A stretch of 64,000 nucleotides of DNA, from NCBI GenBank assembly GCA_039621445.1, contig CP154954.1, positions 36,689,703-36,753,702 on the forward strand. The letters are read 5' to 3'. The notes under the pieces are model-generated. The model ran no database searches, was not told the DNA's origin, and saw only the letters and a program-made list of their open reading frames with translations. Positions 5,208 to 64,000 of the stretch are shown piece after piece. A program made the translations under genes and the position numbers. Every line of letters begins with the position of its first letter. Positions within the stretch are counted from its first letter, which is position 1. The DNA comes from Euglena gracilis (Eukaryota).

Positions 5208-6661
5208 TTAAAAACGTTTTCAGAGCCCGCCAAATGCCTGCCCTGAAATTCGTGGTCATGATTCACGCAAGGGGTCAAAAACGCCAATTTGTGAAATTCG
5301 GACCCAAAAAACGGCACCCTCACTGAAAACGTGCCTGAACCCGGATGCCTTCACTGAAAACGTCTCATTGCCACAAATGCCCTCACTGAAAACGTGCCTG
5401 AACCCGGATGCCTTCACTGAAAACGTGTCATTGCCACAAATGCCCTCACTGAAAACGTGCCTGAACCCGGATGCCTTCACTGAAAACGTGTCATTGCCAC
5501 AAATGCCCTCACTGAAAACGTGTCACCCCCCCCTTTTTTTTCTTTTTTTCTTTTTTCCCGCAGCCCTGCCAATATGGCCAAACGCACGGCAAACTTTGTG
5601 AATGGTCTTTTGCCACCTCCCCCTAGGACGGACCCCCTTCATGGCACCTTGCTGGCACAGGGCAACACAAAGAAAAAGTCCGGCTCCGTAGGTGCAGAGC
5701 TTGCTGCTGTTGCCAACTGTTTGGAGTTCGCCAAACTGTGTCAACATCGGCAAGCCTGTTATCCTGAGCTGGATGCTTTCTTTGTTGCCTGGACGGGATG
5801 GGAGCTGGAACCCAGCCTGTTGTTCGATGAGGCGAGCGTCATCGAACAGTGTGTGGTCCCCTGACCAACCCCCTGTGCCTCGTGCTGTGTCCCGACTGCC
5901 AATAAAACACGAGAAATGTGGTTTTTGTGGTGTTGCCATTCCCAAAAATCCAAATTGTGTGGAGCTGAACAAAGTTGTCTGTGACGCCAAACAAACAAAG
6001 TTGTCTGTGAACAAAGTTGTCTGTGATTGGCATATCATTTTCATTGCCAAGATTTGGCAAAAGAGCCAAAGTATGGCTCTTTTGTGTCAAGAAACTGTGT
6101 TCGGGCCAAGACTTAGGGGGAGCCCAGGGGCGGGGACCGCGACGCCGAAGGCGCCGCGGTCGCCCCTGGGCCCCCCTAAAACCTTGGCCCAAAACACTGT
6201 TCTTGTTTGAAACCGTGTTTTGGGCGAAGATTTAAGACTTTTAAAGTCTCGAAATCGGCCCAAACACGGTTTCCTTGTGTAAAGCGTGTCGTGTGCCGTG
6301 ATGTCCGCCACTCTGTTTCGTTGTGCTCCAAGGCAACCTAGCCTTCTGTTGTGTTGTAGAGTGCCCCCGACCCGCCTCACTCGTTGAGGACCACCCGGCC
6401 TCGCAACCACACGCCGATTTTTCATGATAGTGTTTTTTGCTTTTTGCTCAGGGTTGCCACAGATGCCCTCACTGAAAACGTGCCTGAACCCGGATGCCTT
6501 CACTGAAAACGTGTCATTGACACAAATGCCCTCATTGAAAACGTGCCTGAACCCGGATGCCTTCACTGAAAACGTGTCATTGCCACAAATGCCCTCATTG
6601 AAAACGTGTTCATGACCACGAATTTCAGGGCAGGCATTTGGCGGGCTGAACACGTTTTTAA
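5208..6661. mobile_element. Element with ~50-bp TIRs, ttaa ends, 63-bp subterminal repeats and internal cargo
   Basis: gcccgccaaatgcctgccctgaaattcgtggtcatga inverted at 6610-6646; 63-bp repeats at 5321-5520 and 6470-6608. Confidence 0.75.
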
Positions 6662-7000: not shown

Positions 7001-7102
7001 TAAGTACAGGCAGAGGTAGGGGGATTTCTTGGCAACGGCCACCGTGGGCTTTGTCGGCTTTCGGCAGCGACTGCCCAACGACCCCCTCCCCCAGCCACGC
7101 AG

Positions 7103-7222
7103 GTGTTCGCCCAGACGGTCCTGCACGACGACCAAGGTGCGCCTGCAGAATGACTACGGCGCCAACCGGCGGTACGGCAACTTCCTGCGGGGCACGTACA
7201 TCATCCTGAAGGAAGAGGGCCT
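7103..7222 (+). pseudogene. Orphan mitochondrial carrier (SLC25) exon with frameshift
   Basis: cag|VFAQTVLH / TTKVRLQNDYGANRRYGNFLRGTYIILKEEGL. The carrier signature Px[DE]xxK[x]RLQ ... EG is present, but the PxD codons are reduced to one base. Confidence 0.75.
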
Positions 7223-7357
7223 ACCCATATGGGTATAAGGGGGTCCAGGGGGGAATAAGGGGGGGAACCCTTCCTGCTGAGGTAGCAGCACACACCTGGC
7301 AGCGTGGAATATAGCTGGCACTTCGTCTAAAACAAAGTCAAAAAAAACACTTTTTTT

Positions 7358-8058
7358 CAGGGTTGGGCAATTAACCGTTATTATTGGGGTCAAGCGATTA
7401 ACCATGGTTAACTGGGGGGTCAACAAGCGATTAACCAATTTTCGATTAACTGTGCTTTTCCCTCGATTAATTTCGATTAACCACCACAAAATTCAAAGTG
7501 TCCCTACCCTTGAGTAGTGTTGTACACCTTGCCAACTTGTGACTCCAGTGATTTGCGCAATCGCCTTGGTGATTGCTCCGTTGATGCGCTCATGTTTGTG
7601 CAAATGAATTTACGCCAACTTGGCTGTCTGGCCCATTTGACAGGCAACGGAGATCCGTGGTTTTCATTTTTTTGGTTTGTTCGGCTCATGATCTATCCAA
7701 TGAATGAGAGTCTGAGCTCTGGTTTGGCGACGATGATTTCAGGCACCTCTGATGACAATTACCACCCCTCCTCCGAAGGAGTTATGTTGGGTTTTGCAGT
7801 TGAAAAGTGCCTCTTTTCCAAAAGGGAACTTTAATTGCCCACACAACAGGGTCCATCCCAACCTAGTCCCCAAAGGGTAGAGAAATGTTCCCAAACCCAT
7901 TTGATTTCTGCCAAAAAAAAGGTCGATTAACTGGGGGGGCCACAAGCGATTAACCGTTTTTCGATTAACCATGGTTGTGGGTTGTCCCCCCCACAAACGA
8001 TCGATTAACTGGGAGGTCACAAGCGATCAACCGTTTTTCGATTAACCATCCAACCATG
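7358..8058 (+). mobile_element. Internally deleted hAT DNA transposon with transposase C-terminal dimerisation remnant
   Basis: TIR cagggttgg / ccaaccatg; perfect 8-bp TSD cttttttt; subterminal cgattaac repeats at both ends; 7547-7610 encodes SDLRNRLGDCSVDALMFVQMN, matching the hATC pattern R-N-R-L-x5-A-L-x-F-x3-N. Confidence 0.85.
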
Positions 8059-8842
8059 CTTTTTTTTATAAAAAAAACATGTTTTTTTCAAAAAAAAACA
8101 AAAAATACGCCATTTTTGCCGCACCGAGGAAAATTTTTTATGGCACAACCAAAATGTATTTTTGTCCCCCTGGCCCCGAAGGGGCCGAGACGCTAACACC
8201 TTTTTTGAAGCCCAAAAACTTGAGCTAGAAAGCGAAATCTGTGTCAAGAACTGTGTTTGGGCCAAGAGTTAGGGGGTGCCCAGGGGCGCCCCTGCGTGTC
8301 GTGGTGCAGGGGCGACCACGGCACGAAGGCGCCGTGGTCGCCCCTGGGCCCCCCTAAAACCTTGGCCCAAAACACTGTTCTTGTTTGAAACCGTGTTTTG
8401 GGCGAAGATTTAAGACTTTTAAAGTCTCGAAATCGGCCCAAACACAGTTTCAGTGGTAGAACCCCTTTGGAGACCTCCCAACTCAACCCAACTGTCGACT
8501 TCACAACCTGGGGGGGGGGGTGAAGAAGCCATTGGGGGTGTTCTCCCTGCGTCCCCCCCGCATCCCCCCTCCGCGTCCCCCCGCGTCCCGGATTTTGGCC
8601 GGGCACATTTTTTGGTCGACCAAAAGAAAATTACATACAATTTTTGGTGACGCCAATGGAAACACGTGGGGGTTGTTGGGCCAAAGTTCCTCCCGCGTCC
8701 CCCCCGTGTCCCGAACCACCCCCATTTTTTACACTTTGCGCAAAATCATTTTTTTTTGTTGAAATTCGACAGTTTCGGAGTCACTTTCCGCTCCGAAAAA
8801 ACAGGCAATTACTTTTTTCGGCCAAGCCACTCAGTCACTTTA

Positions 8843-9013: not shown

Positions 9014-12000
9014 TACTCCCCGGGGGGGGGGGTCGGCCACTCAGGAAAACCAGTCACTTTTTGGCCTTTCAAGGCCATTTTGGGCCAAAATTTTCTCCGG
9101 CGCCTTCGGCGCCGGTTGGCCACTCAGCCACCTTTGGGTGATTTCTGGCCCTAGGGGGAGGGCCAAAAAACCAGTCAGTTGCTCACCCCCCCGGGGGGGG
9201 GGGTGGGACAGGTGTTAAGTAACGGTCTGATTCAAACAGCCAAGGTGAAAGTGGTTTGTGGTGTCCCAAAAAGCAATTAGCATCAAAGGAGGAAAAAAAA
9301 GTCGGTTTTTGGCCAAAATCAAACATCAAGAAGTGCCATGGGGTTTTTTTCAAGGACTTCATTTCGGCCGCCAAAGGCGGCCGAGAAGGTGATGGGGGTG
9401 TCTGGGACGCGGGGGGGACGCGGGGGAGACGCCATTTTTGGGACGGTGAAATTAGGAATTTGCTACGAGAAAATTTTAGCCAAATTAGGATTCTACCACA
9501 ACAAATTAGGAATCACCAACCGCAAATTAGGAATCACCCACCACAAATTAGGAATCACCCACACCAAATTAGGAATCACCAACCTCAAATTTGCTTGAAA
9601 TTAGGAATCAGCCTCCTAAATTTTGCTGTCTCGAGAACAAAATTTGGGTTCCAAAGTGGGACGCGGGGGGGACGCGGGGGGGGACGCGGGGGGGACGCGG
9701 GGGGGGGACGCGGGGGGGACGCGGGGGAGACACCCCCAATGGATTTTGCAATGTCGTTCTCCGAAAATGTGCTCTTAACTGGTAAGGTGGCTGCCGAAGG
9801 CAGCCGAGACACACCCTTTGAACCATTGAACATGGCATTGCAAAAGAAAAATATCACATTCATGCTAAATATTTTTCTTTCCAAAATCCTGGGGGGGGGC
9901 GGCCGCCCCCCCCCCCCCGACCCCCCTTGTGACACCTATGGGATGGTACCCTCCAAATTTGTTTCTACACCCCTGGGCACTGATGTGGTGTGACCCGAAC
10001 AAATACCCTTTTCCCCAAACCACCCCCAAAATTGTGGAACGCAGTTTACCATCCGGGTGAAATTTTTTTTTTTGCTCCTTTTCCTCTCAAAATGGTCATT
10101 TTGAGGGTAATGGTTCATGCAATTTTATCAAAGCTTCCAAAGACTTGCCCGAAATGTCATTTTTGGCCATTTTTGGCCAAAAAAAAAGTGCTCTTGCGGT
10201 GAACTTTACCGGTGGGGGGCGGTTCGGGACGCGGGGGGGGGGGTGACGCGGGGGGGGACGCGGGGGGAACTGTGGCCCGACAACCCCCCACGTTTTCTTT
10301 GGTGTTACCCAAATTTGTATGTAATTTTCCTTTGGTCAACCAAAAAATGTGCCTAGCCTCACAGGGGGGGGGGGTCACAGGAGGGTCACGGGGTCAGGGG
10401 GGGAACACCTCATTTTCGGTGGCAAAATTAGGAATCACCAAACCGATTTTTTGGGGGGGAAATTCCATGAATTAGGAATACCCACACCTAAAAATTAGGA
10501 CTTTGACACCAAATTAGGAATCACCAACCCCGAAATTGAGAAATTTATGGGGGTGTATGAGTCGCGGGGGGGGTCGCGGGGGGGGTCGCGGGGGGAACGT
10601 GGAAGTTTTGACGGGTCACGCGTGACAAGTGTGACCTTTCATACAACGTCACATGGAACCTATTTTTAGAACTTTTGGGTCCAAAAATAGCTCCAATTAG
10701 GAATTTGTCACACATTTTTGGCAATTTTGATTCCTAATTTGAGTGCAAATTAGGAATTAGGTGCCACTTTTTGGCTCCTACTGGGATGTGGAAACCCTCC
10801 ATGTGTGGGTCGCGGGGGGGTCGCGGGGGGGTCGCGGGGGGGGTCGCAGGGGATACACCCCCTGTGCCTAAAAATTGGAATCTACTGGAGAATTTTATAA
10901 AATTAGGCCAAAAGCCAACTGGCCAAAAAATATCCCCGCAAAATTTGGTCAAAATCCTGGACGCGGGGGGGACGCGGGGGGGGGGACGCGGGGGGAACAC
11001 CCCTGTGAAGTTCACAATTGGGTTGGCAGGGGGTGGTTTGGACCCCTGGCGAACTTTCAAACGGTGAACTTCACTTTGGGGAGGAGGACGCAGGGCTGAC
11101 GTTTTTTTTTGTTTTAAAAACAAAGCAAAAAAACTTTTATGAATAAAAAACGGTTTAAAAACGTTTTTTTGTTTCAAAAAAGAGTGTTTTTTTTAAATAA
11201 AACACTGCAAATAGGAAAAAAACTTGTTTAAAAACACTTGTTTTAAAACAATGCCTCAGCCCTGGGAGGACGGGGGTCCAAAAACCCAAAGTTCACCGCC
11301 CGATATCCAAAACCGAGGGGGGGGTCGTATATGGGGGGCATGGTAAATTTTTCCTGACGAGCGCAAAAAAAGTTGCAAAAACAACGATGTCCGCCCCCAC
11401 GATGGGGGGTTGGTACGCCGTGGCGAGGGGGTCCGAATAGGGGGGGGGAGGGGGGGTAAATGGCGTGGCGAGGGGGTCGGCAACCAGGGGGGGGGAGGGG
11501 TGTACCATGGTTTTCCAACAAAATTTTCGTTCAAAAAATCGCGAAGATCGCCAGTGGCGTGGCGAGGGGGTCCGGCCAGGGGGGAGGGGAGTAAATGGCG
11601 TGGCGAGGCCCTCGGAGAGGGGGGGGGGAGGGGTGTACCAACCCCCCGATGGTCCCACATCCCTTTGCCCGGCTGCCTTCAATGGAGTCTCAAAGACCTT
11701 TTTGTTGACTGGTGTCCCACCCCCCAGATGGTGTCCCATGGAGGCTAGGCGTGCCGCTCGGGGGGGTCCGGGACCCCCCCCTCCCCCCCTGCGCGGCCCC
11801 TGCGCGGCCGCTCGCCCCCCCCCCCCTGGACCCCCCTCCCCCCACTGTGCCTAGCATAGCCAAGAAAAAATTTTTTGTGAAAAAATCACGATTTTTTTGA
11901 GGCCCAAAAATGACCAAAAATGACCATTTTCGGACATAAAATGGCAAATTTGGGGGCCGCGCGCTCTGTGCGCGGCCAAAAAAGCACTTTTTGAGTCAAA

Positions 12001-14683
12001 AATGGCCCCAAAATGGCAAAAAATGACCACTTTCTGGACCCGAAAATCACCGATTTTAGGATGCGTTCCGCCCGCGCGGCTACCCTCGGACCCCCCCTCC
12101 CCCCCCCCCCCCCGCCCGCACCGCCGCTCCCCCCCACTCAGCCCCCCCCCCGCTGTGCCTAGCCTCCCATGCCCACCCTGTCGTTGGACTGGGTGTGCCG
12201 CACTATTGGGCTGTGCATCGAACAAAATTTTTTTGCGTCCCCCCCCGGACCCCACCTCCCCTGGGGGTGCCTTCTATTTCCAAAACAGGGCCATTTTTTT
12301 GTACCAAAATTGTATATCCACCCCAGTGGTCCCCAAATGGTAAATTTCATTGGGGTTGTACCCCCTGCGACCCCCCACCACCGCAGATGGAGGGTTTCCG
12401 CAACCCAATAGGGGCCAAAAAATGACCTGATTATCATGCCCCCCCCCCCCTCATACCACCTCTTCCCCCTAATTGACCCCCCCCAATTGACCAAACGCCC
12501 CGGAGAAAATTTTTTGAACCCCCCCCTAATTGACTGCCCAGGGGGATTCTGTAGCACCCCTTATTTGACGGCACCCCCCCCCCTAATTGACGCCCCCCTC
12601 CCCCCCTAATTGAACCCCCCCCCTAATTGACCAAAAGGGGGGTGACCGTGGAGAGGTCCCACGTTGGAGATCAGGCAGTAGACTTTGGTCATTTTGACCC
12701 CCTCCCCCCCCCTATGGCGAAGTTCACCGTTTGAAAGTTCACCGGGGGGTCCCAGACCCCCTCCCCCCCCTCTGCCTGACCCATCGGTGAACTTCACCGG
12801 TGAAGTTCACCAAGAGAGTACTTTTTTTGGCCAAAAATGACCAAAAATGGCATTTTGGGTAAGTTTTCGGAAATTTCGATAAAATTCCATGAAGCATCAA
12901 CCTCAAAATGACCATTTTGAGAGGAAAGGGGCAAATTTTTACCCATGAAAATTTCACTCCCAACCATCAAAACGGTGAAGTTCACCGGTGAACTTCACCA
13001 GTGAACTTCACCGCCGAAAGCACCCCCCCCCCGGTGAATGTTCACCGGTGAACTTCACCGGGGGGTCCACAGGGGGTGCTACCCCCGTGACCCCCCCCGT
13101 GACCCCCCCGTGACCCGCCCGTGACCCGAGAATCGAGCCTTCAATTTTCATACAATGCATCAACCTTCATCATTTCAGCCTTTCTTTTCATTCATCATTT
13201 CAACCTGCTTTTTGATGTAGGTGGCAATTTTGGTCGCTTTTCATCAATTTTCTGGTTGAAAGCATTGAAAATTTGCCTTGGCATGGTCCATAAAAAAAGC
13301 AGCGTGAATTTGACCCATGGGGGTGTTGGGGACGCGGGGGGACGCGGGGGGACGCGGGGGGGGGGGGACGCGGGAGGCACCACCATTCTAGGGACCATGA
13401 TCGAAGCTGACGGTTTTCTGTTCTTTTCACCGATTTCAGGATGCGTTCTGCCCTTCTCGTGATGTGATGCAACATCATTGTTTGTTTAAAACGAAGTCAA
13501 AAAAAAACACGTTTTTTTAAATAAAAAAAACATGTTTTTTTTTAAACAAAAACAAAAAAAACGCCATTGAGGGTCCAGGGCGAAAATTTTTTTTGCCTTT
13601 AACTTTAGCTTTTTTTTGCCCATCCTCAGGCAGAGAAAGACACCAAATTTGGGATGTTTCAAGTTGAAACATCCCAAAATGGCAGAAAAATGCCCTATTT
13701 TAACCATTCTTGTTGAAGACCTCCAAAAGTATTGGTTTTCAAGTCATTTGAGCTAAGATTGGTTCACCCTTGCGATCAAAGGCAAAATTTGGACCATCAT
13801 TTTCCCCTTTGCTCTTTTTCCGTTTTTTTGCCTGCTTTTTTTAATAAAAAAAAAACGTTTTTAAAAAAAAAACAAAAAAAAGCCAACTATGTCAAAGTGG
13901 CATACTTCCCCCGTGACCCCCCCCGTGACCCCCCCCCGTGACCCCCCCGTGACCCGCACCACCCCCACAGCCCCCCACCCCTGCTTAACCTCCGTTCAAT
14001 CAAGGGGGGGGGAGGTGGAATAAGACCCCCTGCCAAAATCCAAGGGGGGTGTTATTTGGCATGGTAGGAATTGGCACCCAAAGGAATCAAAACTACCAAA
14101 AAAAAACGTGTGATAAATTCTTGACTGGATCTATTTTTGGACCCAAAAGTTTTCAGGACAGAATCGTCGTCCAAAAAACCCGTGGAGGGGGACGGCGGTT
14201 CTGCCCTGAACCCGGCGTCCCAAACGCCGGTTTAACCAGAAAAGGGGGAGGGGGGACGGTTTTGGGGACCCGAACTCGACAGCCTAGCCCCATTTGCCCC
14301 CCCCCCAGTGCAAAACAGTGGATGTGGGCGGGGGGCAATGGGTGGCCGGCTGACTAGTCGGCTGACCACCCAGTTGGATGGCCGACTAGGCCTAGTTGGT
14401 AGCTGGTCGGCGAGACGGGGTGGGGTGGGGGGGGGGAGTGGTGGGTAGTCGGCCGACTAGTCGGCGAAATACCCCCTCCAATGTGCTAACGGGTCAAAGC
14501 GCCGACTTTTAAGCACCCCCCTGAAAAAAACGTACGTAGAAATCACCTCAACGCCACTCAAAACCCACCCAAATGGCTCCAGAGCCCCCAATTGGGGGTG
14601 AATATGCAAAAACTGGGGGGGGATGTCCATATTGGGCCCCTTTTTGACAAAAGAACACCTCTCCCCATTGGATTTTCAATATA

Positions 14684-14839: not shown

Positions 14840-15949
14840 TAATGTCAAGATTTCGCACAAAAAGGACTTAGCCTTCCAAGTATGTTGCCAACATAGAAGG
14901 GATTTTGTTATTTGAGGGGGGGGGCGGAGCCCCCCCCGCCTGTGCCAAAGTGAGCCACAAAAAACGACTTAGCCCCCAAGTGTGTTGCCAACACAGAAGG
15001 GATTTTGCTATTTGAAACTCGGATGGGAGGTGGGGGGGGTGTTTTCTGCCCTTCGTAACGCAGAAAGCTTGCATTTCTAAAGGATTTTCATGTAATCCCT
15101 TTTTCATTGTTAATTTTGTAACCCTCTGGACCCCCATCACAGGCCCACCCACCCCCACCGACCAAAGATTTTCATCTGAGGGTGTTTATGTTGGTGTTAG
15201 GCACTTATTTGGACCCATCCGGACCATTTCCAGGTGATTTGGGTCCGCCACGGACCATTTTTATGACCATCGACTACCGGGGCACCAACTGGTTTGCATA
15301 GGATTTTCTTCATGGGGCCTGTTAGTACAAAAGAGTGGGTAGCCGGCCCACTACACAATACCCCCCATCCCGTCTCGCCGACCACCTACCGCGGCCGACC
15401 ACCCACTACCATCCCCCAGTCCACCGCCATGGAGGTTGGGGGGGGGTGCTGCGGACCCCCCGGTGAACTTCACCGGTGAAGTCCACCGGCCAAAAAAGTC
15501 CTCGTGGTGAACGTTCACCGCTGGAGGTTCGGCAGCCCCCCCCCCCCTGGTCACCCGACCCCCTCGGCACGGCGTGCCGAACCATACCAATGAATTTTCC
15601 TTTGGGAAAACAGCTTCACCCAAACCGTGCCCCGGGCACGTGCCGTGTTCCGTTTCAGCTCCAAACGGGAATTGAATTCACGGCGGGTAGCACTGGTTCG
15701 CCCAGACCGTGCCCCGGGCCCAGGGGAATTGCTCTTTTTTGCCCTCGCTCCGTGAAGAACATCCCTTGCCTTTCTCACGGTGGGTAGCACAGCTTCACCC
15801 AAACCGTGCCCCGGGCCCAGGGAAACGTCTCTTTTGGCCCTCGCCACAAGAGGAACCCCCTTGTGACTCCCTGTGCCGCCACAGGTCGCGGGTGGGATAT
15901 ACTGCGGGGTTTTTACAAAGTGGTACACTGTTCGGTGACCGAGTGAGAG

Positions 15950-16790
15950 GTTAGTGGAAAATGAGCAAGGCTCATCCTCAATATATATAAAAGTGCTGGG
16001 GGGGGCGCGTGTGTGTTGTGGTGTTGCCCTCTTTGGCGTGTTTGTGTCGTTTCTGCGGAGAGTGGAAAATGAGCGAGGCTCACCTTAAATACAGTGCTTG
16101 GGGTGATGGGTGTGGCTCTTGTTGCCTTCCTTGACGTGTTTGTCTCGGGTGGTTGCCTTCCTTGGCGCGTGGGAGTTGTGTTGTGGACAGGTTGTGTGGC
16201 GCGGACTGCCGGACGGTTGCGTTTGTGTTGGTCGGGTTGGGTTATATTCTGTTGGGCCAACGGTGTCGGTGAAATGGGGTTTGGATTTAGGTTGAGTAGG
16301 GAGAGTGAGAGCCTCTACAGGAGGTGTCGGCATTTGTGGATGGTTCAGTGTAGAAGCACCACACAAGCTGTTTCGAGATCTCTTTGGCAAGTGTCAGGGA
16401 GAGGCCTTGCCAGACCTCTGCTTCAGTTTGACGTTGCTGCCAGCCCTCCCGCTGCCCCAGCAGGGCTTTGAGGAGGGTGGACATCAGTGAGCGGCCTTCC
16501 TGGCCCAGTCCCCCGAAGCAGTCAAGCACGAAGGCAGTGAGCCTCCACCCCCGCCTTGCACAGGCGGCATCATATTTCCGGTGTTTTTCGGCTTCTTGCC
16601 TCTCCTGCCACGCTTGCAGTTGGGTGGCACGACCAAGAGGGTTGCTTGGAATTTGGGTGTGTCGAATGGTGACGTCGATTGCCACGGGTCCGTCACTGTC
16701 CAGACGTGGAATAAAAACATCGCCGGGGCGGGTGTTGTCGTCAGCCCGTTGCTCTTTCTTGGCTTGGCTCGCTCCGTTTTCATCGTTCGG
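15950..16790 (-). mobile_element. 5'-truncated non-LTR retrotransposon, RLE (CRE/SLACS-like) clade
   Basis: ORF 16287-16865(-) has RPGDV...VAIDVT...EAEKHRKY...AFVLDCFGGLG, a PD-(D/E)xK restriction-like endonuclease C-terminus; putative 3' UTR follows; boundaries approximate. Confidence 0.8.
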
Positions 16791-18190
16791 CGAACTTCGC
16801 AATTCCGAAATCGTCATCAACGACGAGATGAAGTTCAACGCAACGATTGTGCATTTGTTCTGCACACTGCTGGTGTGTTTTGTTTTGTGATTGGTTGGGG
16901 ATCAGCTACAACCAATGCCAATTTTTTTTGGCAAAGTGACAAAAAGTTGTCAGGGGAAAAAATTCAAAAAGAAATGAAACAGTATCAACAAAATATGTGT
17001 CTCTAATTCAGTTCGGGTTGGGACAAGTCACTACAAAATGCAAGTGAACGGTGGCGCGGATTTCGGCACTGGAGCGGTGCTGGAATGGAGTGCTGGACGT
17101 GATTTTGCCTTCAAAACTCACAAAGAGCACCACATGGCTGAGATGGGCCTTTTGCAGAATGGCAGAAGCTTCTGAGTGCTGAACTCACTTCAGAGACTGC
17201 CAACTGCAGTGCATCTGTAGAAAATCTCTCTGTGCAAAAAGAAACAATAAACACGCGCTTTGTGGACACATGCGCTTCGAGCAGTTGCGCGGATGTCCAC
17301 CTTCAGCGTCGTTAACACCACCGGCATTGTCATCAAAAAACTTGTGGAGTTGAGGCAAAATTTGACGCACTGCAGGGCAGTGCAATGCCATGCAGCGAAG
17401 TGGCAGTGCCTGGCAACGCAATGGCAGTGACAGTGCAGTGGTTTGGGTTTCAAAACAGAGTGCAATGGCAATGCAGTGCAGTGGAGTGCAGTGCAGTGGC
17501 GTTGGCTGTGTTGTGATTCATCAGCACTCCAACCCAGAACTGCGTCAGTGCCGACCACTGGCTCCTCCATGCTGTTGCATTTTGTTGTGGCTTGTCGCAA
17601 GTCCCATGTGCACCTCATCAATCAAGCAGGTGAAATGCTTGCGTGCCAAAAGATGCAAGTGCCAAATGTTGCAACTGTCAGCTGTCAGTTAAACCAAGAC
17701 GGTTCTTGTTCACTGGTTCTTGAAGGAATCAAGGGTTAGGGTCAGAGTCAGGGTTGGGGTTAGGTGAGGGTCAGGTTTAGGGCAGCTGGCGGTCGAGTGG
17801 CGAACAGCACCACCAAGTCTTTTTTCCAAAAACCTGCACTTCATGACCTTCATTGTTCAGTGACCAAGCGTTCCACCATCTGGACCCTATGCAGTCATGT
17901 TTGAGTTTTTCAAATGGCGGTACTTGCTCGCCAAGGGACCTTCACCCAAAATTTTACAAGTCGGTTGCCCTGAGGCCTGAATTGTGGTTGTGTGATACAT
18001 CTGATGGTTTTGGGGTGAATTTTTGCTTTTGGGGGGGGGGAGGGTATGCACAAGATTTGACCAATTTTGCATAGGTCAAAAAATGAGGGGGTGGGGGTCC
18101 TCCAGCCACCCCCTTAATTGGCCAAATGGGGGTCTGAAGCCATTAGTTAAATTGGGCTGAGTTGAGGGCATTTTGGGCAATCCTTCGGTA

Positions 18191-18428
18191 CCACCTCCCC
18201 CCCCCCCTAATTGACCGTGGGACCTCTCCACGGTCACCCCCCATTTGGTCAATTAGGGGGGGGGTTCAATTAGGGGGGGGTTGGTCAATTAGGGAAGGGG
18301 TACCGTCTTTTTGGGGGTGCTTCGGCACGGAATCCCCCCGGGCAGTCAATTAGGGGGGGGGGGGTTGAAAAAATTTTCCCCGGGGCGTTTGGTCAATTAG
18401 GGGGGGGTCAATTAGGGGGGGGAGGTGG
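18191..18428. mobile_element. TA-target MITE with ctaattgac repeats
   Basis: ta|ccacctccccc...ctaattgacc / ggtcaattag...ggaggtgg|ta; inverted relative at ~12456-12660. Confidence 0.75.
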
Positions 18429-18518
18429 TAATAAATTTTCAACACAAAAAAAGTCAGCCATTTTTAGCCATTTTGATCCGTTTTGAATCCATTTTCACAC
18501 TTTCCTCCTCTGTCACAG

Positions 18519-18578
18519 CTCCAGCACCACCTCCCTCCCGCCGCCGATCACTTGGTGACCGCCGGCGCCTCTCCCCTT
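18519..18578 (+). CDS. First recognisable exon (LQHHLPPAADHLVTAGASPL)
   Basis: Pyrimidine tract then cacag acceptor at 18518; peptide is a diverged copy of the AHHLVIAGPAALPL repeat; followed by N3-CAG hairpin intron. Confidence 0.6.
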
Positions 18579-21500
18579 CCTCAGCCACACAATTGCTCCG
18601 GACCAAAAACCACATCTTTGGTGAGAAAAGTCGGACAGAATCTCATTAAAATGTGGGGGAATCTCACAAATTGTGAAGGAAAATGCCAACTGCAAAGACC
18701 TCCACCAGGGAAAATACCATGATGAGCACCCCATGACGCAACCACCCGGGGCAATTTGGGCAAACCTGGAGTATTTCCCCTATTTGGAGCAATTGCATGC
18801 TGACAATTCCTCCCCGCCCCTCTCCCTCCTCTCCCCGCCGCCCTCCCCCTTCCACTCGCCCTCCCCATGCCGGCGCACAGGGTTGCATGGGAAGCTCCGC
18901 AGACATGAGGTAGTTGGCAGGGGAGGGTCACCCACCCCCCCCCCCAGGGGGGTACGGTGGCGAGGGGGATCCACCCCCCCCAGTGTCAAAAGGAGGGTCC
19001 CCCCACCCCCCTCCCCCTCCTCCCCCTCCAAAAAAAATCTTCCGACGCTTCGCACTAAGTGTGCATTTTGGGACCCTCTTGAGGCTCAGCATGAAATTTC
19101 GGCAAAATGGCCAAAAACGACGTCACTCGGGACAGGCGGGGAGTTGTGGGGAAATCAAAATACTGTTAGATGGGCCATTTTAAGGGCTGCAATTTTGTTC
19201 TCCGGACATGTCCTCTAATTCCCTGCCATTTTGAGAAATACCAGAAATTGATTTTTTGACCTCCCCAAAAAACGGCCAAAATTTTCGACAACCGAAAACT
19301 GGGGTTGGAGTCCCAACCCCCCCCCCCCCATTTTGGAAGGATGCTCCCCCCACTCCCTCCTCCGAGATTCCCATGCGGCCCTGCCGCCGCATCACCTGGT
19401 GATCGCCGGCCCCGCCGCCCTCCCCCTTCGCCTCGCCCTCCCCACGCCGGCACACAGGATTGCATGGGAAGTTCCGCAGACAGAGGTTGGTGGTAGCACC
19501 CCCCCCCCCTGGGGGGCAAGGTGGCGGGGGGCCATTTCTGAGAAATGCCCAAAAAGCTGATTTTTTTTAACCCGGAAAATGGCCAAAAATTTCGGCAACC
19601 GAAAACTGGGGGTCGGAGGCGAGGTCCTACCCCCCCCCCCAAGCTTTTGAAGGGTGCTCCCCCCCACTCCCTCCTCCGAGATTCCCATGCGGCCCTGCCG
19701 CCGCATCACCTGGTGATCGCCGGCCCCGCCGCCCTCCCCCTTCGCCTTGTCGCCCTCCCCCTTCGCCTCGCCCTCCCCACGCCGGCACACAGGGTTGCAT
19801 GGGAAGTTCCTCAGACACAGAGGTTGGTGGTAGCAACCCCCCGGCGAGGGGGGGGGGGGCAAGGTGGCGGGGGGCCATTTCTGAGAAATGCCCCAAAAGC
19901 TGATTTTTTTAACCCGGAAAATGGCCAAAAATTTCGGCAACCGAAAACTGGGGGTCGGAGGCGAGGTCCTACCCCCCCCCCCCAAGCTTTGGAAGGGTGC
20001 TCCCCCCACTCCCTCCTCTGAGATTCCCATGCGACCCTGCCGCCGTATCACCTGGTGATCGCCGGCCCCGCCGCCCTCCCCCTTCGCCTCGCCCTCCCCA
20101 CGCCGGCACACAGGGTTGCATGGGAAGTTCCGCAGACAGAGGTTGGTGGTAGCAACCCCCCCCCCCGGGGGGGCAAGCTGGCGGGGGGCCATTTCTGAGA
20201 AATGCCCAAAAAGCTGATTTTTTAACCCGGAAAATGGCCAAAAATTTCGGCAACCGAAAACTGGGGGTCGGAGGCGAGGTCCTCCCCCCCCCCCAGCTTT
20301 GGAAGGGTGCTCCCCCCCACTCCCTCCTCCGAGATTCCCATGCGGCCCTGCCGCCGCATCACCTGGTGATCGCCGGCCCCGCCGCCCTCCCCCTTCGCCT
20401 CGTCGCCCTCCCCCTTCGCCTCGCCCTCCCCACGCCGGCACACAGGGTTGCATGGGAAGTTCCGCAGGCAGAGGTTGGTGGTAGCACCCCCCCCTGGGGG
20501 GGCAAGGTGGCGGGGGGCCATTTCTGAGAAATGCCCAAAAAGCTGATTTTTTTAACCCGGAAAATGGCCAAAAATTTCGGCAACCGAAAACTGGGGGTCG
20601 GAGGCGAGGTCCTACCCCCCCCCCAAGCTTTTGAAGGGTGCTCCCCCCCACTCCCTCCTCTGAGATTCCCATGCGACCCTGCCGCCGTATCACCTGGTGA
20701 TCGCCGGCCCCGCCGCCCTCCCCCTTCGCCTCGTCGCCCTCCCCCTTCGCCTCGCCCTCCCCACGCCGGCACACAGGGTTGCATGGGAAGTTCCGCAGGC
20801 AGAGGTTGGTGGTAGCACCCCCCCCTGGGGGGGCAAGGTGGCGGGGGGCCATTTCTGAGAAATGCCCAAAAAGCTGATTTTTTTTAACCCGGAAAATGGC
20901 CAAAAATTTCGGCAACCGAAAACTGGGGGTCGGAGGCGAGGTCCTACCCCCCCCCCCCAGCTTTGGAAGGGTGCTCCCCCCACTCCCTCCTCTGAGATTC
21001 CCATGCGACCCTGCCGCCGTATCACCTGGTGATCGCCGGCCCCGCCGCCCTCCCCCTTCGCCTCGCCCTCCCCACGCCGGCACACAGGGTTGCATGGGAA
21101 GTTCCTCAGACACAGAGGTTGGTGGTAGCAACCCCCCCCCCCCCCCCCGGGGGGAAAGGTGGCGGGGGGCCATTTCTGAGAAATGCCCAAAAAGCTGATT
21201 TTTTTTAACCCGGAAAATGGCCAAAAATTTCGGCAACCGAAAACTGGGGGTCGGAGGCGAGGTCCTCCCACCCCCCCCCCAGCTTTGGAAGGGCGCTCCC
21301 CCCCCACTCCCTCCTCCGAGATTCCCATGCGGCCCTGCCGCCGCATCACCTGGTGATCGCCGGCCCCGCCGCCCTCCCCCTTCGCCTCGCCATTCTCCCG
21401 GTGGCCCCCATCCTGGCCCTCCCGGCCCCCGCCCTGGCCCTCCCGGCCCCCGCCCTGGCCCTCCCGGCCCCCGCCCTGGCCCTCCCGGCCCCCGCCCTGG

Positions 21501-24162
21501 CCCTCCCGGCCCCCGCCCTGGCCCTCCCGGCCCCCGCCCTGGCCCTCCCGGCCCCCGCCCTGGCCCTCCCGGCCCCCGCCCTGGCCCTCCCGGCCCCCGT
21601 CCTGGCCCTCCCGGCCCCCGCCCAGGCCCTCCCGGCCCCCACCGTGTTGGCCCTCCCAGCGCCCACCCCGCTGGCCACACTATTGCTCAACGCCGGTCCT
21701 ACCCCAACCGGGGGGGCCGGGGGGGGGTGACCAACTGGTTTCTTCAGAGTGACTGACTGGTTTTTTGCCCCCCCCCCCCAAGGGGTGGGGTAGGCCCGAA
21801 AATGAAAAAGTGTATTTTTCGAGATTTTTTGGCAAATGCTCATTGCCTCCTGCAGAGTGGCCAATCCCTCCGGGGGGGGGGGACTGACTGGTTTTTTTGG
21901 AGTGGAAAGCAACCCCCTTCCCCCCCCCCGGGGTCGCTGAGCAATGGTGTGCTGCTGGCCCTCCCAGCGCCCATCCTGCCGGCCCCCCGGCCCATCCTGC
22001 TGGCCCTCCCAGCACCCACGCTGCCGGCCTGCCGGCCCATCTTGCTGGCCACACCATTGCTCAACACCTGTCGTACCCCAACCGGGGGGGGGGGGTATGC
22101 CCAATAATGAAATGGTGGCTGGCCTGACGCCGAAGTTGCAGGAATTTTTTTTGGATTTTTGTATGTATATATAATATGTTTTTTTTTAATATAAATATGT
22201 ATATGTATGTATACGTCTGTACACATACAATGAAAAAGTGACTGACTGGGTTTTCCGGAAGTAGTGACTGACTGGTTTTTTTTTGGAGTGGAAAGCAACC
22301 CCCTTCCCCCCCCCCCCCCCGGGGCGCTGAGCAATGGTGTGCTGCTGGCCCTCCCGGCACCCATCCCGCCAGCCCTCCCAGCCCTGCGGCCTGTTCAGGG
22401 TTTGTTCCCCTGGTGCACCTGACATGTTTTTTTCCCTTCAGAAATTATCGTTTTGCAAGGGGTTGCCCGCCAAAATGGCCAAATGTGCCCACCTGCTGCC
22501 AGGTTTTTTTTGAAGGTTTGCCGAAGATGTATCCATTTTGGACTTTCTCGACCGAGCAGAAGTCCCGGGGCTGTGCAGAAACCCTCAACAGCCAATGGGT
22601 AACAAATGACAGATCAATGATATATAGTTATGTGCAACGTCCCCATTTTTCTGCACAACAACCAACCCTCGCCCCACCCCGCCGCCATCAACCAACCTCT
22701 TCCTCTACAACTACACTCCACTCAACTACTTCTACAACTACACTCCGCCACCTGCCCCAGCAGCCCCCAGCACCATCGATGCCGCCGCCCCCACGTTCCG
22801 CCCCAAACCTCCGATGCCCCCGGCCCCAATGCCCGCGCCCATCCCCAAGCCCACCAACAACACTCCCACCCCCACCACGACTGCAACGACAACCGCCACC
22901 ACCTGGGCTGTGGCCATCGTCGCCGTCATGCTCCTCTTCCTCGCCTTCCAGGTATGTCTTGTTTACATTCCACGCATAATGGTCAGTCGCTGCAGTGTGA
23001 TCCGAGTGATGCCAGTCGGTGCAGAGTGATCCGATACGGGCGACACCACTGTCACCGGAGCCAGTGCTGGTGAACACCCTGCAGTAGCGAAACTTTGGCA
23101 ATTATTTTTTTGGAATAATTCGGGGCGGGGGACAGGATGGGGGGAGGCGTGATTTTTCAGAGACAGATTGCCTCAATGCCAGCAAATTGGGGGGTGCCAA
23201 AAAGTGCGACCAGGCCCCCGGGACCAGGTCGGCTGGGTTCCCCGACCCCAAAAACCCCACTGTCACCGGAACCACTGCTGGTAAAACACCCCGCAATAGC
23301 AAAATTTTGGCCATTTTTCAGTATAATTCGGGGCGGGGGCGGGGGGTGGGGGGGGGGGCGTGATTTTTTGGGGCCAGATTGCCTCAATGCCAGGAATTTG
23401 GGGGGTGCCAAAAAGTGCGACCAGCCCCCGGGACCAGGTCGGCTGGGTTCCCCACCCCCAAAAACCCCACTGTCACCGGAACCACTGCTGGCAAAACACC
23501 GCTGGTAAAACACCCCGCAATAGCGAAATTTTGGCCATTTTTCAGTATAATTTGGGGCGAGGGGGGGGCGTGATTTTTTGGGGCCAGATTGCCTCAATGC
23601 CAGGAATTTGGGGGGTGCCAAAAAGTGCGACCAGCCCCCGGGACCAGGTCGGCTGGGTTCCCCACCCCCAAAAACCCCACTGTCACCGGAACCACTGCTG
23701 TTAAAACACCCTGCAAAAGCGAAATTTTGGTAATTTTTAAGTGTAATTCGGGGCGGGGGCGGGGGGTGGGGGGGGGCGTGATTTTTTGGGGCCAGATTGC
23801 CTCAATGCCAGGAATTTGGGGGGTGCCAAAAAGTGCGACCAGCCCCCGGGACCAGGTCGGCTGGGTTCCCCACCGCCAAAAACCCCACTGTCACCGGAAC
23901 CACTGCTGGTGGTAAAACACCCCGCAATAGCGAAATTTTGGTAATTTTTAAGTGCAATTCGGGGCGGGGGGGGGGGCGTGATTTTTTTGGGGCCAGATTG
24001 CCTCAATGGCAGGAATTTGGGGGGTGCCAAAAAGTGCGACCAGCCCCCGGGACCAGGTCGGCTGGGTTCCCCACCGCCAAAAACCCCACTGTCACCGGAA
24101 CCACTGCTGGTAAAACACCCCGCAAAAGCGAAATTTTGGTAATTTTTAAGTGTAATTCGGGG

Positions 24163-24194
<32 letters not shown>

Positions 24195-27100
24195 GATTTT
24201 TTGGGGCCAGATTGCCTCAATGCCAGGAATTTGGGGGGTGCCAAAAAGTGCGACCAGGCCCCCGGGACCAGGTCGGCTGGGTTCCCCGCCCCCAAAAACC
24301 CCACTGTCACCGGAACCACTGCTGTTAAAACACCCCGCAATAGCGAAATTTTGGTAATTTTTAAGTGTAATTCGGGGCGGGGGCGGGGGGTGGGGGGGGC
24401 GTGATTTTTTGGGGCCAGATTGCCTCAATGCCAGGAATTTGGGGGGTGCCAAAAAGTGCGACCAGGCCCCCGGGACCAGGTCAGCTGGGTTCCCCGCCCC
24501 CAAATACCCCACTGTCACCGGAACCACTGCTGTTAAAACACCCCGCAATAGCGAAATTTTGGCCATTTTTAAGTGTAATTCGGGGGCGGGGGGTGGGGGG
24601 GGCGTGATTTTTTGGGGCCAGATTGCCTCAATGGCAGGAATTTGGGGGGTGCCAAAAAGTGCGACCAGCCCCCGGGACCAGGTCGGCTGGGTTCCCCACC
24701 CCCAAAAACCCCACTGTCACCGGAACCACTGCTGTTAAAACACCCCGCAAAAGCGAAATTTTGGCCATTTTCGGGGGGGGCGGGGGGGGGGGGGGGGGGG
24801 GGGGGGCGTGATTTTTTGGGGCCAGATTGCCTCAATGCCAGGAATTTGGGGGGTGCCAAAAAGTGCGACCAGCCCCCGGGACCAGGTCGGCTGGGTTCCC
24901 CACCGCCAAAAACCCCACTGTCACCGGAACCACTGCTGGCAAAACACCGCTGGTAAAACACCCCGCAATAGCGAAATTTTGGTAATTTTTAAGTGCAATT
25001 CGGGGCGGGGGGGGGGGGCGTGATTTTTTTGGGGCCAGATTGCCTCAATGGCAGGAATTTGGGGGGTGCCAAAAAGTGCGACCAGCCCCCGGGACCAGGT
25101 CGGCTGGGTTCCCCACCGCCAAAAACCCCACTGTCACCGGAACCACTGCTGGTAAAACACCCCGCAATAGCGAAATTTTGGTAATTTTTAAGTGTAATTC
25201 GGGGCGGGGGCGGGGGGTGGGGGGGGCGTGATTTTTTGGGGCCAGATTGCCTCAATGCCAGGAAATTGGGGGGTGCCAAAAAGTGCGACCAGGCCCCCGG
25301 GACCAGGTCAGCTGGGTTCCCCGCCCCCAAAAACCCCACTGTCACCGGAACCACTGCTGTTAAAACACCCCGCAATAGCGAAATTTTGGCAATTTTTAAG
25401 TGTAATTCGGGGCGGGGGCGGGGGGTGGGGGGGGGGACGTGATTTTTTGGGGCCAGATTGCCTCAATGCCAGGAAATTGGGGGGTGCCAAAAAGTGCGAC
25501 CAGGCCCCCGGGACCAGGTCGGCTGGGTTCCCCACCGCCAAAAACCCCACTGTCACCGGATCCACTGCTGTTAAAACACCCCGCAATAGCGAAATTTTGG
25601 TAATTTTTAAGTGTAATTCGGGGCGGGGGCGGGGGGTGGGGGGGGCGTGATTTTTTGGGGCCAGATTGCCTCAATGGCAGGAATTTGGGGGGTGCCAAAA
25701 AGTGCGACCAGGCCCCCGGGACCAGGTCAGCTGGGTTCCCCGCCCCCAAAAACCCCACTGTCACCGGAACCACTGCTGTTAAAACACCCCGCAATAGCGA
25801 AATTTTGGCCATTTTTAAGTGTAATGGGGGGGGGCGGGGTGGGGGGGCGTGATTTTTTGGGGCCAGATTGCCTCAATGGCAGGAATTTGGGGGGTGCCAA
25901 AAAGTGCGACCAGCCCCCGGGACCAGGTCGGCTGGGTTCCCCACCCCCAAAAACCCCACTGTCACCGGAACCACTGCTGTTAAAACACCCCGCAAAAGCG
26001 AAAATTTGGCCATTTTTAAGTGTAATTCGGGGCGGGGGCGGGGGGTGGGGGTGGGGGGGGGCGTGATTTTTTGGGGCCAGATTGCCTCAATGCCAGGAAT
26101 TTGGGGGGTGCCAAAAAGTGCGACCAGCCCCCGGGACCAGGTCGGCTGGGTTCCCCACCCCCAAAAACCCCACTGTCACCGGAACCACTGCTGGCAAAAC
26201 ACCGCTGGTAAAACACCCCGCAATAGCGAAATTTTGGTGTTTTTTAAGTGTAATTCGGGGCGGGGGGGGGGAGGGGCGTGATTTTTTGGGGCCAGATTGC
26301 CTCAATGGCAGGAATTTGGGGGGTGCCAAAAAGTGCGACCAGCCCCCGGGACCAGGTCGGCTGGGTTCCCCACCGCCAAAAACCCCACTGTCACCGGAAC
26401 CACTGCTGGTAAAACACCCCGCAATAGCGAAATTTTGGTAATTTTTAAGTGTAATTCGGGGCGGGGGACAGGATGGGGGGGGGCGTGATTTTTTGGGGCC
26501 AGATTGCCTCAATGCCAGGAATTTGGGGGGTGCCAAAAAGTGCGACCAGGCCCCCGGGACCAGGTCGGCTGGGTTCCCCGCCCCCAAAAACCCCACTGTC
26601 ACCGGAACCACTGCTGTTAAAACACCCCGCAATAGCGAAATTTTGGTAATTTTTAAGTGTAATTCGGGGCGGGGGGGGGGGGGGGGGGGGGGTGGGGGGG
26701 GGCGTGATTTTTTGGGGCCAGATTGCCTCAATGCCAGGAAATTGGGGGGTGCCAAAAAGTGCGACCAGGCCCCCGGGACCAGGTCGGCTGGGTTCCCCAC
26801 CGCCAAAAACCCCACTGTCACCGGAACTACTGCTGGTAAAACACCCCGCAAAAGCGAAATTTTGGTATTTTTAAGTGTAATTCGGGGCGGGGGCGGGGGG
26901 GGGGTGGGGGGGGCGTGATTTTTTGGGGCCAGATTGCCTCAATGCCAGGAATTTGGGGGGTGCCAAAAAGTGCGACCAGCCCCCGGGAGCAGGTCGGCTG
27001 GGTTCCCCACCCCCAAAAACCCCACTGTCACCGGAACCACTGCTGGTAAAACACCCCGCAATTGCGAAAGTTTGCTGCAGTGGAGATAACATGGCAATGT

Positions 27101-38545: not shown

Positions 38546-39931
38546 GGTGCATTGACCTACCAATGGGCCCTGCTGTTGATCCTGCCGGCCACCGACAGCC
38601 GCCTGGCCAACGCGCTGGCATGGCTGGCCAGGGTTGTATGGGAAGCTCCGCAGACATGACGCAGGTGGCAGGGGGTCCCCCCCTAGGGGGGTAAGGTGGC
38701 AGGGGGGTCCCCCCACCCCCGTCCCCCCGGTTTCGGAAGGGGGTCCCCCACCCACCCCCCTCCCCCTCCTCTGCAGGGGCAAATAAAAATCTTCCGGTGT
38801 GCATTTTTGGACCCTCTTGAAGCTCGATATGAAATTTTGGCAAAATGGCCAAAATTGGTCGAAAAATGGCTGTAACTTGGGCCAGGTGGGGAGTTGAGGG
38901 GAAATCAAAATGGCATTTCAAGGCTTCAATTTAGGTATCTGACATTTTGTCCGCCATTTTTGAGAAATTTCAGAAGAATTGATTTTTTTTGACCCAAACA
39001 GGGCCAAAATTTTCGGCGACTGAATACTGGAGGTAGGGGGGTCCCCCCTCCCCCCCCCCCCCAGTTTTGGAAGGGGAGCCCCCCCCCCCTCGAGATTCCC
39101 ACACAAGCCTGCGGCTGTTGGTGGTCGCCACGTACAGCTGGCTGTACGTGGACTGCCTGCGGCCGCGGCTGCGGTGGGTCGCCGGGTTGTACCCGTGCAC
39201 CTCAAGCGGGGGGCCCTTTGCGGTTGCATTTCAAGGGGCGGAGGGTTGCCTTCAAGTTCATTCGCAAACCCCCAACGGATTTGTCTCTCATCCAAATCCA
39301 ACCTCCCCTCCCCCCCCCCTGGCAGAGGGCCCTCCGCCGCCAGCCGTCGCCGCCATCGTCCATGCCATCGACCGCCGCCTGCGCGAACAAGTCGAGGGCA
39401 ACGGCTACGGCGGGCCACACCCCCGCTGACCCCCCCCCCCCCCCGTTGGCTTGGCTGGGGTCTCCCTGGTCCCTCCCCAGGGATGGATTGGAAGCATTTT
39501 GGTTTGAAGGTGGGTGAGGGGGCCCCTTCCTGGAGGTTGGGGGGGTCCGGACCCCCCCTTCTTTATGACAAAAAATATTTCTTTTGGCGCGCCGGAAAAT
39601 GAACAAAAATGCCCCTTTTCCTCACTTTTGAGCATATTGCGCATTTTTGGGGTGCTTTCCGCAGCTAAAGTGTTCACAATTTTCAAGGAATTCATTTTCA
39701 AAGAAAAATCAAGGGATTTTCAACAATTTTGGTCTCATCCAAATCCAACCTCCCTCCCCCCCCCCCTGGCAGAGGGCCCTCCCCTTTGACACGGGGCGTG
39801 GAGCCACAACGCCGCCTACGCCTCCACCCGCACGGACCACACGTGGGCCATCATGATCGGCCCCGTGGGCGACCTAGCCGTCCACGCCCTGCTGCTGGGC
39901 CAGGCGCTTTTTTTAGCCAACTCCTTTTTTT

Positions 39932-63500: not shown

Positions 63501-63652
63501 AGCAAACCATGGTAGTCATCGCATCGATCATGGTACTCGACACCTCTCTCTCTGTCCCTGTCTCCGTCTCTGTCTTGCGCCTTGTTCCCGCCTCACGCAG
63601 TCTGCGCTGCCCCCCACCCCCCATATGTCTTTGGCTTGCGGCGCACGACCAG

Positions 63653-63791
63653 GGGACACTGAAGACGCTGCGGCCGGCGGCGGCGGCGGTCTGCGCGGCG
63701 GGTGCGGGTGCGGGTGCGGGCAGCGCCCCCAGTCCCCGGCTACTCCCCAGCCCCCGCAACGCCAACGACCATTGGCCGGCCTGTCCGTCAG
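63653..63791 (+). CDS. Possible exon of a second gene (GTLKTLRPAAAAVCAAGAGAGAGSAPSPRLL...)
   Basis: GC3-rich stretch between cag acceptor and gtacct donor; no partner exon established. Confidence 0.3.
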
Positions 63792-64000
63792 GTACCTTGT
63801 GCATTGAACGCAAGGCCGCCTGGCATTACCCCACCCACAGGGAGCAGGCTTCTGCTCAAGGGTTCGCAGCCTCCGGGGGGATATTCAAGTTGCAATTTGC
63901 TTTTCGCATCATCCAAAGATTTGTGATTTTGCATTTTTTGCATATGGTTCATTTCTTGATACGTGCCCCCCCCCCCCCGGGCAATTGACGCCCCCGGGCA

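Follow-up and report, generated by a model that had tools for sequence, protein, structure and literature searches.

What kind of DNA occupies positions 7358-8058 of the Euglena gracilis stretch studied here, and which class of enzyme could have put it there? The window (the whole stretch of 64,000 nucleotides that was analyzed) is repeat-rich and eukaryote-like, with 35-68% G+C and almost no recognisable protein domains. A preliminary description made from the letters had placed a deleted hAT element at this position and suggested that a hAT transposase is the autonomous partner both of this element and of an intron family that opens with the same eight nucleotides. We examined the boundaries of the element, its abundance, its coding content and its relation to other repeats of the window.

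Sequence comparison revealed a discrete 701-bp insertion at 7358-8058 with a perfect 8-bp duplication, CTTTTTTT, on either side. The first bases of the insertion are CAGGGTTG at 7358 and the last are ...CCAACCATG at 8058. A blastn search within the window identified a paralogous stretch at 13481-13568 in which both flanks are uninterrupted; it matches 7322-7357 (86%) and 8060-8114 (89%). This paralog reads ...aaaaaaaaacaCGTTTTTTTaaataaaaaaaacatg..., and the C(G)TTTTTTT segment is present in it once. When the flanks of the element were joined with one duplicate removed, pairwise alignment showed the product to be colinear with 13481-13568. The duplicated part includes the C that precedes the T-run, and the next base outward is not duplicated. 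As the paralogous uninterrupted site holds the 8-mer once and the joined flanks are colinear with it, the duplication is real and 8 bp long, and its ends are fixed despite the T-run. The insertion, its exact ends and its 8-bp duplication are thus proven by the paralogous site, and the site into which the element was inserted is the A/T-rich core of another repeat. The features that define the insertion are as follows.

7350-7357, no strand: left copy of the target-site duplication CTTTTTTT; from the sequence, and found once only in the paralogous uninterrupted site
8059-8066, no strand: right copy of the target-site duplication CTTTTTTT; from the sequence and pairwise alignment
13481-13568, + strand: uninterrupted ("empty") paralog of the A/T-rich host repeat; from blastn, the sequence and colinear alignment with the joined flanks

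The element and its perfect duplication are accordingly present where the preliminary description had put them, and the empty paralog lends that claim support. A contig from X2, one of three public DNA runs used here (X1, X2 and X8), crosses the left junction at 7193-7384 with two differences, so the same insertion exists in another data set. A joint from 7347 to 8060 with ACACGT in between, present in a single contig of X1 and a single contig of X2, was considered as an allelic empty site and rejected, its sequence being that of the paralog at 13500-13520. Within the 64-kb window blastn detected no second copy of the element, which is also the only CA[GT]GGTT...AACC[AC]TG pair with flanking 8-mers in the window.

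Other sequence in the vicinity is also repeated. An A/T homopolymer palindromic module (aaaaaaaacatgttttttt-like) is found at 357-419, 1650-2048, 8059-8114, 11166-11202, 13500-13568 and 13835-13879, and contig depth is high at 7278-7357 and 8034-8141; the module probably forms the core of a further mini-element of very high abundance. A further repeat family, represented by 8240-8451 and 6083-6273 (85% alike, partly self-complementary), had the highest contig depth of the stretch examined, and in the public runs it showed numerous joints from internal deletions.

Elements of the hAT superfamily have the terminal motif YARNG, and 8-bp duplications are their hallmark (excerpts of PMC3014272 and PMC3942097). 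At its two termini the 701-bp element carries CAGGGTTGG and, read inward, CATGGTTGG, an inverted repeat of 9 nt with one mismatch. Given the ends set by the duplication, inverted termini of this length with no more than one mismatch would arise by chance with a probability of about 1.1e-4; over the first 20 positions, 14 match. The right end, read inward, is CATGG and agrees with YARNG at four of five positions, having T and not R at position 3. Next to both termini lie copies of a short motif. Exact CGATTAAC was found nine times in the window against 0.68 expected, in every case inside the element and on the + strand. When one mismatch was allowed, the number in the element rose to 12, half of them no farther than 124 bp from the left end and the other half no farther than 135 bp from the right end, with none between 7482 and 7923, while the other 63.3 kb of the window contained just three such matches. 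The repeats have one orientation at both ends. A block of about 50 nt is itself present as a direct repeat, at 7408-7457, 7927-7976 and 8004-8053. From left to right, the non-coding parts of the element are the following.

7358-7366, + strand: left terminal inverted repeat CAGGGTTGG, which begins CAGGG and fits YARNG; 8 of 9 positions complementary to the right end
7368-7481, + strand: left subterminal block of six CGATTAAC-type repeats (four exact, two with one mismatch), from pattern counts
7610-7916, no strand: internal non-coding filler, part of the repeated family; from the high summed depth of contigs of three DNA runs over 7602-7925, with no Pfam match for its frames
7917-8049, + strand: right subterminal block of six CGATTAAC-type repeats (five exact), including two units of about 56 nt (7917-7972 and 7995-8049) that are direct repeats with 7408-7457
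8050-8058, - strand: right terminal inverted repeat (CATGGTTGG read inward), from the sequence and alignment

The abundance of the element was assessed with contigs of the three DNA runs placed at a likeness of at least 85% (9,513 contigs for X1, 7,012 for X2 and 2,067 for X8). Summed word depth over the interior, 7494-7925, was 42,020-89,623 in X1, 14,894-34,452 in X2 and 482-2,542 in X8; over the unique flank, 7008-7277, the corresponding ranges were 306-1,665, 188-1,126 and 30-86. Contig depth over the whole 701-bp element was 50-100 times that of the unique flank in all three runs, a ratio of depths and not a copy number, and single contigs bridging unique sequence had a depth of about 55-72. 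Because contig depth is far above that of the unique flank in three runs, the element belongs to a high-copy MITE-like family; depth not being a copy number, these values are read only as a family of hundreds of copies or more. In all three runs the interior, including the region that encodes the peptide discussed below, is part of the repeated unit. The element thus shows the characters by which MITEs are recognised, namely short length, no Pfam domain, inverted ends, a duplication and high contig depth.

Most family copies differ from the copy in the window by about 14 substitutions and a few indels. One of the differences, G to A at 7568, was present in all 33 X1 contigs that cover this position and gives RNRLS, which is nearer to the hAT consensus than the window copy. 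Another, C to T at 8028 in most family copies, turns the repeat at 8024 into an exact CGATTAAC; GT is inserted behind 7656. Since most copies differ at those positions, the copy in the window is a slightly decayed member of its family.

The best-described hAT element for comparison, Ac, has the 5′ end C/TAGGGATGAAA, an 11-bp terminal repeat with one mismatch, an 8-bp duplication and, in the terminal 200 bp, AAACGG repeats to which the transposase binds; Ds-del elements are internal deletions (PMC3260210, in part). For hAT elements generally, terminal inverted repeats of 10-25 bp are quoted, the hATC domain corresponds to pfam05699, and hAT MITEs measure 532-927 bp (excerpts of PMC3942097). The 8-bp duplication, the CAGGG left terminus and the clustered subterminal repeats of the 701-bp element fit hAT (excerpts of PMC3014272 and PMC3260210). 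Less in keeping with hAT are the right end CATGG, the common orientation of the CGATTAAC repeats and the 9-nt terminal repeat, which is shorter than the quoted 10-25 bp (same excerpt of PMC3942097). The placement of the subterminal repeats within about 200 bp of both ends, six and six with none in the middle, is a feature of Ac/Ds-type hAT elements. By analogy, the CGATTAAC-type repeats are probable candidates for transposase-binding sites. hAT elements prefer targets of the form nTnnnnAn (Ac group) or nnnTAnnn (Buster group). Measured against these preferences CTTTTTTT, the record of one site only, shows T at position 2 but neither A at position 7 nor a central TA. Taking these features together with the protein-level results given below, we regard hAT as the probable superfamily of the 701-bp element, and hold this with fair confidence.

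Protein-level evidence was sought in the interior. The peptide SDLRNRLGDCSVDALMFVQMN, reported in the preliminary description, is indeed encoded at 7547-7609 on the + strand, within a stop-to-stop frame of 106 aa at 7514-7834; its core, RNRLGDCSVDALMFVQMN, lies at 7556-7609. Among 30 ESM-Atlas neighbours of residues 1-42 of this frame, 22 belong to the PF05699 (Dimer_Tnp_hAT) set, with scores of 0.90-0.91. The top neighbour (0.92) is unnamed, and the named ones share 166 and 142 features, which is below the 170 given as typical of true family members. Residues 55-96 of the same frame, used as a control, reached a maximum of 0.75 and pointed to no family. A hAT C-terminal motif, R.[RKS]L.{4}[VIL][ED].L[LMIV].[LIVF]..[NW], was written post hoc, with the peptide already seen; in six frames of the window it matched once, at the peptide, and it was present in 1 of 300 block-shuffled windows.

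Homology searches gave a different picture. HMMER searches against Pfam (E<=10) found no match for the 106-aa frame, for two further frames inside the element or for four sub-peptides, 7517-7639 among them. The check proposed in the preliminary description, the 7517-7640 translation against PF05699, therefore failed, and this outcome is the first of the two findings that were jointly to refute the hAT reading. Matches weaker than about P 1e-5 do not pass the HMMER filters and a partial match of 20 residues could go undetected, so this null result bounds the match and does not exclude it. A phmmer search against PDB sequences found no relative of the peptide frame; a word-based protein search yielded 94 word-sharing candidates, none of them at E<=10; and phmmer over 1.84 billion protein representatives gave nothing at E<=0.001, the frames of other family copies being absent as well. 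The literature search found no paper joining hAT, dimerization domain and RNRL. The preliminary description had called the hAT dimerisation pattern established. The Atlas neighbours (22 of 30, with a negative control) uphold the resemblance, while the word itself is too strong because HMMER gave no match against Pfam. That the peptide resembles the terminal part of a hAT dimerisation domain is partly supported, and the corresponding feature is listed in these terms.

7514-7609, + strand: decayed sequence that may derive from the C terminus of a hAT transposase, core RNRLGDCSVDALMFVQMN at 7556-7609; from Atlas neighbours and the C-terminal motif, with no Pfam, PDB or phmmer match

To judge from this sequence resemblance, the chances that the 701-bp family is a deletion derivative of a transposase gene are about even. 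Its interior could instead be unrelated filler in a hAT-mobilised mini-element, as in maize Ds1 or Ds-l4, the RNRL...VD.L.F...N peptide being coincidental; on that reading no transposase gene was deleted to form the element, and its sequence would point to no particular transposase. The lack of HMMER-level similarity to any hAT protein in Pfam, PDB, word and phmmer searches agrees with such a filler, yet 22 of 30 Atlas neighbours of this piece, and none of the control, are in the PF05699 set. The resemblance to the domain extends over only about 20 residues, and the frame continues for 74 more codons without similarity (Atlas control 0.75); on the other hand, the motif is rare in shuffles (1/300 per 64 kb) and the element makes up just 1.1% of the window. 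In maize, the ends are all that most Ds-like elements have in common with Ac (PMC3260210, in part), which would favour filler, but the remnant directly adjoins the left subterminal block on its inner side and is read in the direction of the right end, as it would be after an internal deletion. Taken together, these points make an unrelated interior unlikely, though worth keeping in view.

A partner transposase was searched for in the window and in sequence collections. The Pfam scan covered 150 of the 153 stop-to-stop frames of the window of at least 130 aa (the frames left out were 678-1067 and 63503-63985 on the + strand and 5842-6231 on the - strand) and detected no transposase among them; the sole Pfam matches of the 150 frames were two sub-threshold ones to PF22812. 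An exact 30-nt pattern from the peptide region was found neither in metagenome contigs nor in viral contigs (0 in both), and the doubled subterminal repeat pattern had no occurrence in metagenome, viral or prokaryote genome contigs. In these scans no autonomous copy was seen in the 64-kb window or in the metagenome, viral and prokaryote collections.

The element could also belong to another superfamily that makes duplications of about 8 bp, above all P, or else Mutator-like, Merlin or similar. P elements have the terminal consensus CA...TG and a duplication of 7-8 bp. Both ends of the 701-bp element (CAGGG and CATGG) give this pattern, beginning with CA and ending with TG beside an 8-bp duplication. 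As CA...TG ends and an 8-bp duplication occur in P and hAT alike, end structure alone cannot separate the two, and Panicum virgatum fam1 was called P on "CA/TG termini, 8bp TSD" (Dataset S2 of PMC12130899, in part). The departure of the right end from YARNG and the lack of a hAT HMM match leave room for an assignment outside hAT. Against it, the sole protein-level signal points to hAT, and CAGGG-type ends with clustered subterminal repeats are the Ac/Ds pattern (excerpts of PMC3260210). Remnants of a P transposase (THAP/Tnp_P) were not detected by Pfam in the frames of the element or in the 150 window frames. We consider a superfamily other than hAT rather improbable. That the unit is not mobile at all, its flanking 8-mers and inverted ends having met by chance in low-complexity T/A-rich DNA, can hardly be credited and was rejected: the duplication does lie in a T-run with A/T homopolymer-rich, palindromic flanks, but chance is contradicted by the paralogous uninterrupted site at 13481-13568, the high repetition of the whole 701 bp in three independent DNA runs, the terminal-repeat P of about 1e-4 and the confinement of the CGATTAAC repeats to the element.

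By its structure, the 701-bp element is a non-autonomous cut-and-paste transposon. In its full form the reading that we prefer, held with a little more than even confidence, is that this is one copy of a high-copy, non-autonomous, MITE-like DNA transposon, inserted in the A/T-rich core of another repeat, with hAT as its most likely superfamily. A mechanism may be inferred for it by analogy with Ac/Ds and Hermes. A transposase encoded elsewhere in the genome would bind the CGATTAAC repeats in about 130 bp at each end together with the CAGGG/CATGG termini, excise the element and reinsert it at a staggered 8-bp cut, the repair of which would yield the CTTTTTTT duplication. The frame at 7514-7609 would probably be the residue of the last 25-30 or so transposase codons, and the family a Ds-like internal-deletion derivative that was later multiplied.

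The known systems closest to the element are maize Ds elements, hAT-derived MITEs and the introners considered further below. Like maize Ds (Ds-del and Ds2), the 701-bp element is non-autonomous, has an 8-bp duplication and a short imperfect terminal repeat starting with CAGGG, carries many copies of a short motif in about 130-200 bp at each end and may have originated by internal deletion (excerpts of PMC3260210). Unlike Ac/Ds as presented in the same excerpts, it shows no sequence similarity past CAGGG-TG, its motif is CGATTAAC, in one orientation, and not AAACGG, its terminal repeat is 9 nt long and not 11, its abundance is far above that of Ds-del, and no Ac-like partner was seen in the data searched. 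With the BuT2 MITEs and Mar of Drosophila willistoni it has in common conserved ends, 8-bp duplications, a non-coding sequence and amplification by transposition (PMC3942097 and PMC3517528, in part). It is also of the size class of the BuT2 MITEs, which measure 532-927 bp with a mean of 739 (PMC3942097, in part). For BuT2 MITEs and Mar the parent element and a transposase with a hATC domain are known, whereas the link to hAT here consists of end structure and a resemblance over about 20 residues (excerpts of PMC3942097 and PMC3517528).

CAGGG ends with 8-bp duplications recur in the window in three families. CAGGGTTG itself was found 16 times against 6.4 expected, and seven of these sites are copies of the family described earlier as an intron family (family A), five of the seven in one 330-bp tandem array. 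As had been claimed, the same eight nucleotides open both the 701-bp element and copies of family A: they begin the copies at 18878, at 38629 and in the array, and the copy at 47192 has CAGGGTTT. The copies at 18878-19383 and 38629-~39101 are 70% alike, with similarity beginning exactly at CAGGGTTG; the former has an inverted repeat of about 14 nt, and its flanking 8-mers agree at seven of eight positions. Members of the two other families are as follows.

18878-19383, + strand: copy of family A, a different family also starting with CAGGGTTG; inverted repeat CAGGGTTGCATGGG / CAGGGCCGCATGGG, flanking 8-mers CCGGCGCA / CCGCCGCA
11091-11264, + strand: third family, an A/T-rich mini-element of 174 bp whose inverted termini are CAGGGCTGA and whose 8-bp duplication, GGAGGACG, is perfect

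Several further observations concern these repeats. The tandem array, at about 19400-21400 with a period of about 330 bp, is made of units that each comprise a short family A element (CAGGGTTGCATGGG...CCCATGCGRCCCTG) and a G+C-rich spacer of about 70 bp; a stop-free frame of 764 aa runs through it on the minus strand and has no Pfam match. Directly upstream of the family A copy at 38629, the segment at about 38020-38545 matches itself at many 3-nt offsets, as a short-period tandem repeat does. Two of the 16 CAGGGTTG sites lie in degenerate TTAGGG/TTTAGGG-like (telomere-type) interstitial repeats, at 17720-17780 and about 29940-30010. The 174-bp element has an interior similar both to the A/T-rich palindromic module at 13500-13552 and to the site that received the 701-bp element.

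Past CAGGGTTG, the ends and subterminal sequences of the 701-bp family and family A differ. Because the three families share only 5-8 terminal bases, a common transposase is not demonstrated, and a single hAT partner for the intron and MITE families, drawn from eight shared terminal nucleotides, stays at the level of inference. The broader proposal, in which one hAT-type system recognising CAGGG-type ends amplified the 701-bp CGATTAAC family, family A and the 174-bp family, with family A copies being spliceosomal introns, seems to us doubtful. Were it true, no sequence clue to the enzyme responsible for intron gain in this organism would survive apart from the peptide remnant.

Elements that generate introns, the introners, include terminal-inverted-repeat families classified as DNA/hAT or P (Dataset S2 of Gozashti et al. 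2025, PMC12130899, in part). The 701-bp element is like them in being a short element with terminal inverted repeats and an 8-bp duplication, as are Panicum virgatum fam14 (hAT, TSD length 8) and fam1 (P) in the same dataset (excerpts of PMC12130899). It is unlike introners in that the RNA data gave no splice joint at its termini and hardly any reads on it. In the RNA run X21, about 5% of which was read, no joint was found at 7358/8058 and depth on the element was 0-1.6, with about 110-127 per strand on the neighbouring 7103-7222. In the part of X21 that was read there is thus no sign of removal of the 701-bp element as a spliceosomal intron, the property that defines an introner. The idea that the element lies inside an expressed intron was dropped; two consensus strings of loose RNA ends had no match in the window at up to 3 mismatches.

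The neighbouring segment 7103-7222 is exon-like, lies on the + strand and is preceded by a cag|G acceptor (7100-7102). RNA reads match it at a depth of about 110-127 per strand but have 8 extra bases behind 7126, and at both ends they continue into sequence absent from the window. With the 8 bases added, the frame reads what we take to be a mitochondrial-carrier-like PxExxKxR motif. The segment looks like an isolated pseudogene fragment of an expressed multi-copy gene.

Overall, the 701-bp element is an ordinary, abundant and probably hAT-type non-autonomous transposon, an element of a known kind. The gain for the question of intron origin is small, hAT- and P-classified intron generators with 8-bp duplications having already been catalogued (PMC12130899, in part). 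If the hAT assignment is right, an enzyme class would be named for a family that forms a visible share of the repeats of this genome, and the exact ends (CAGGGTTGGGCAATTAACC...) together with the candidate binding motif CGATTAAC could be used to find the active partner in the full assembly.
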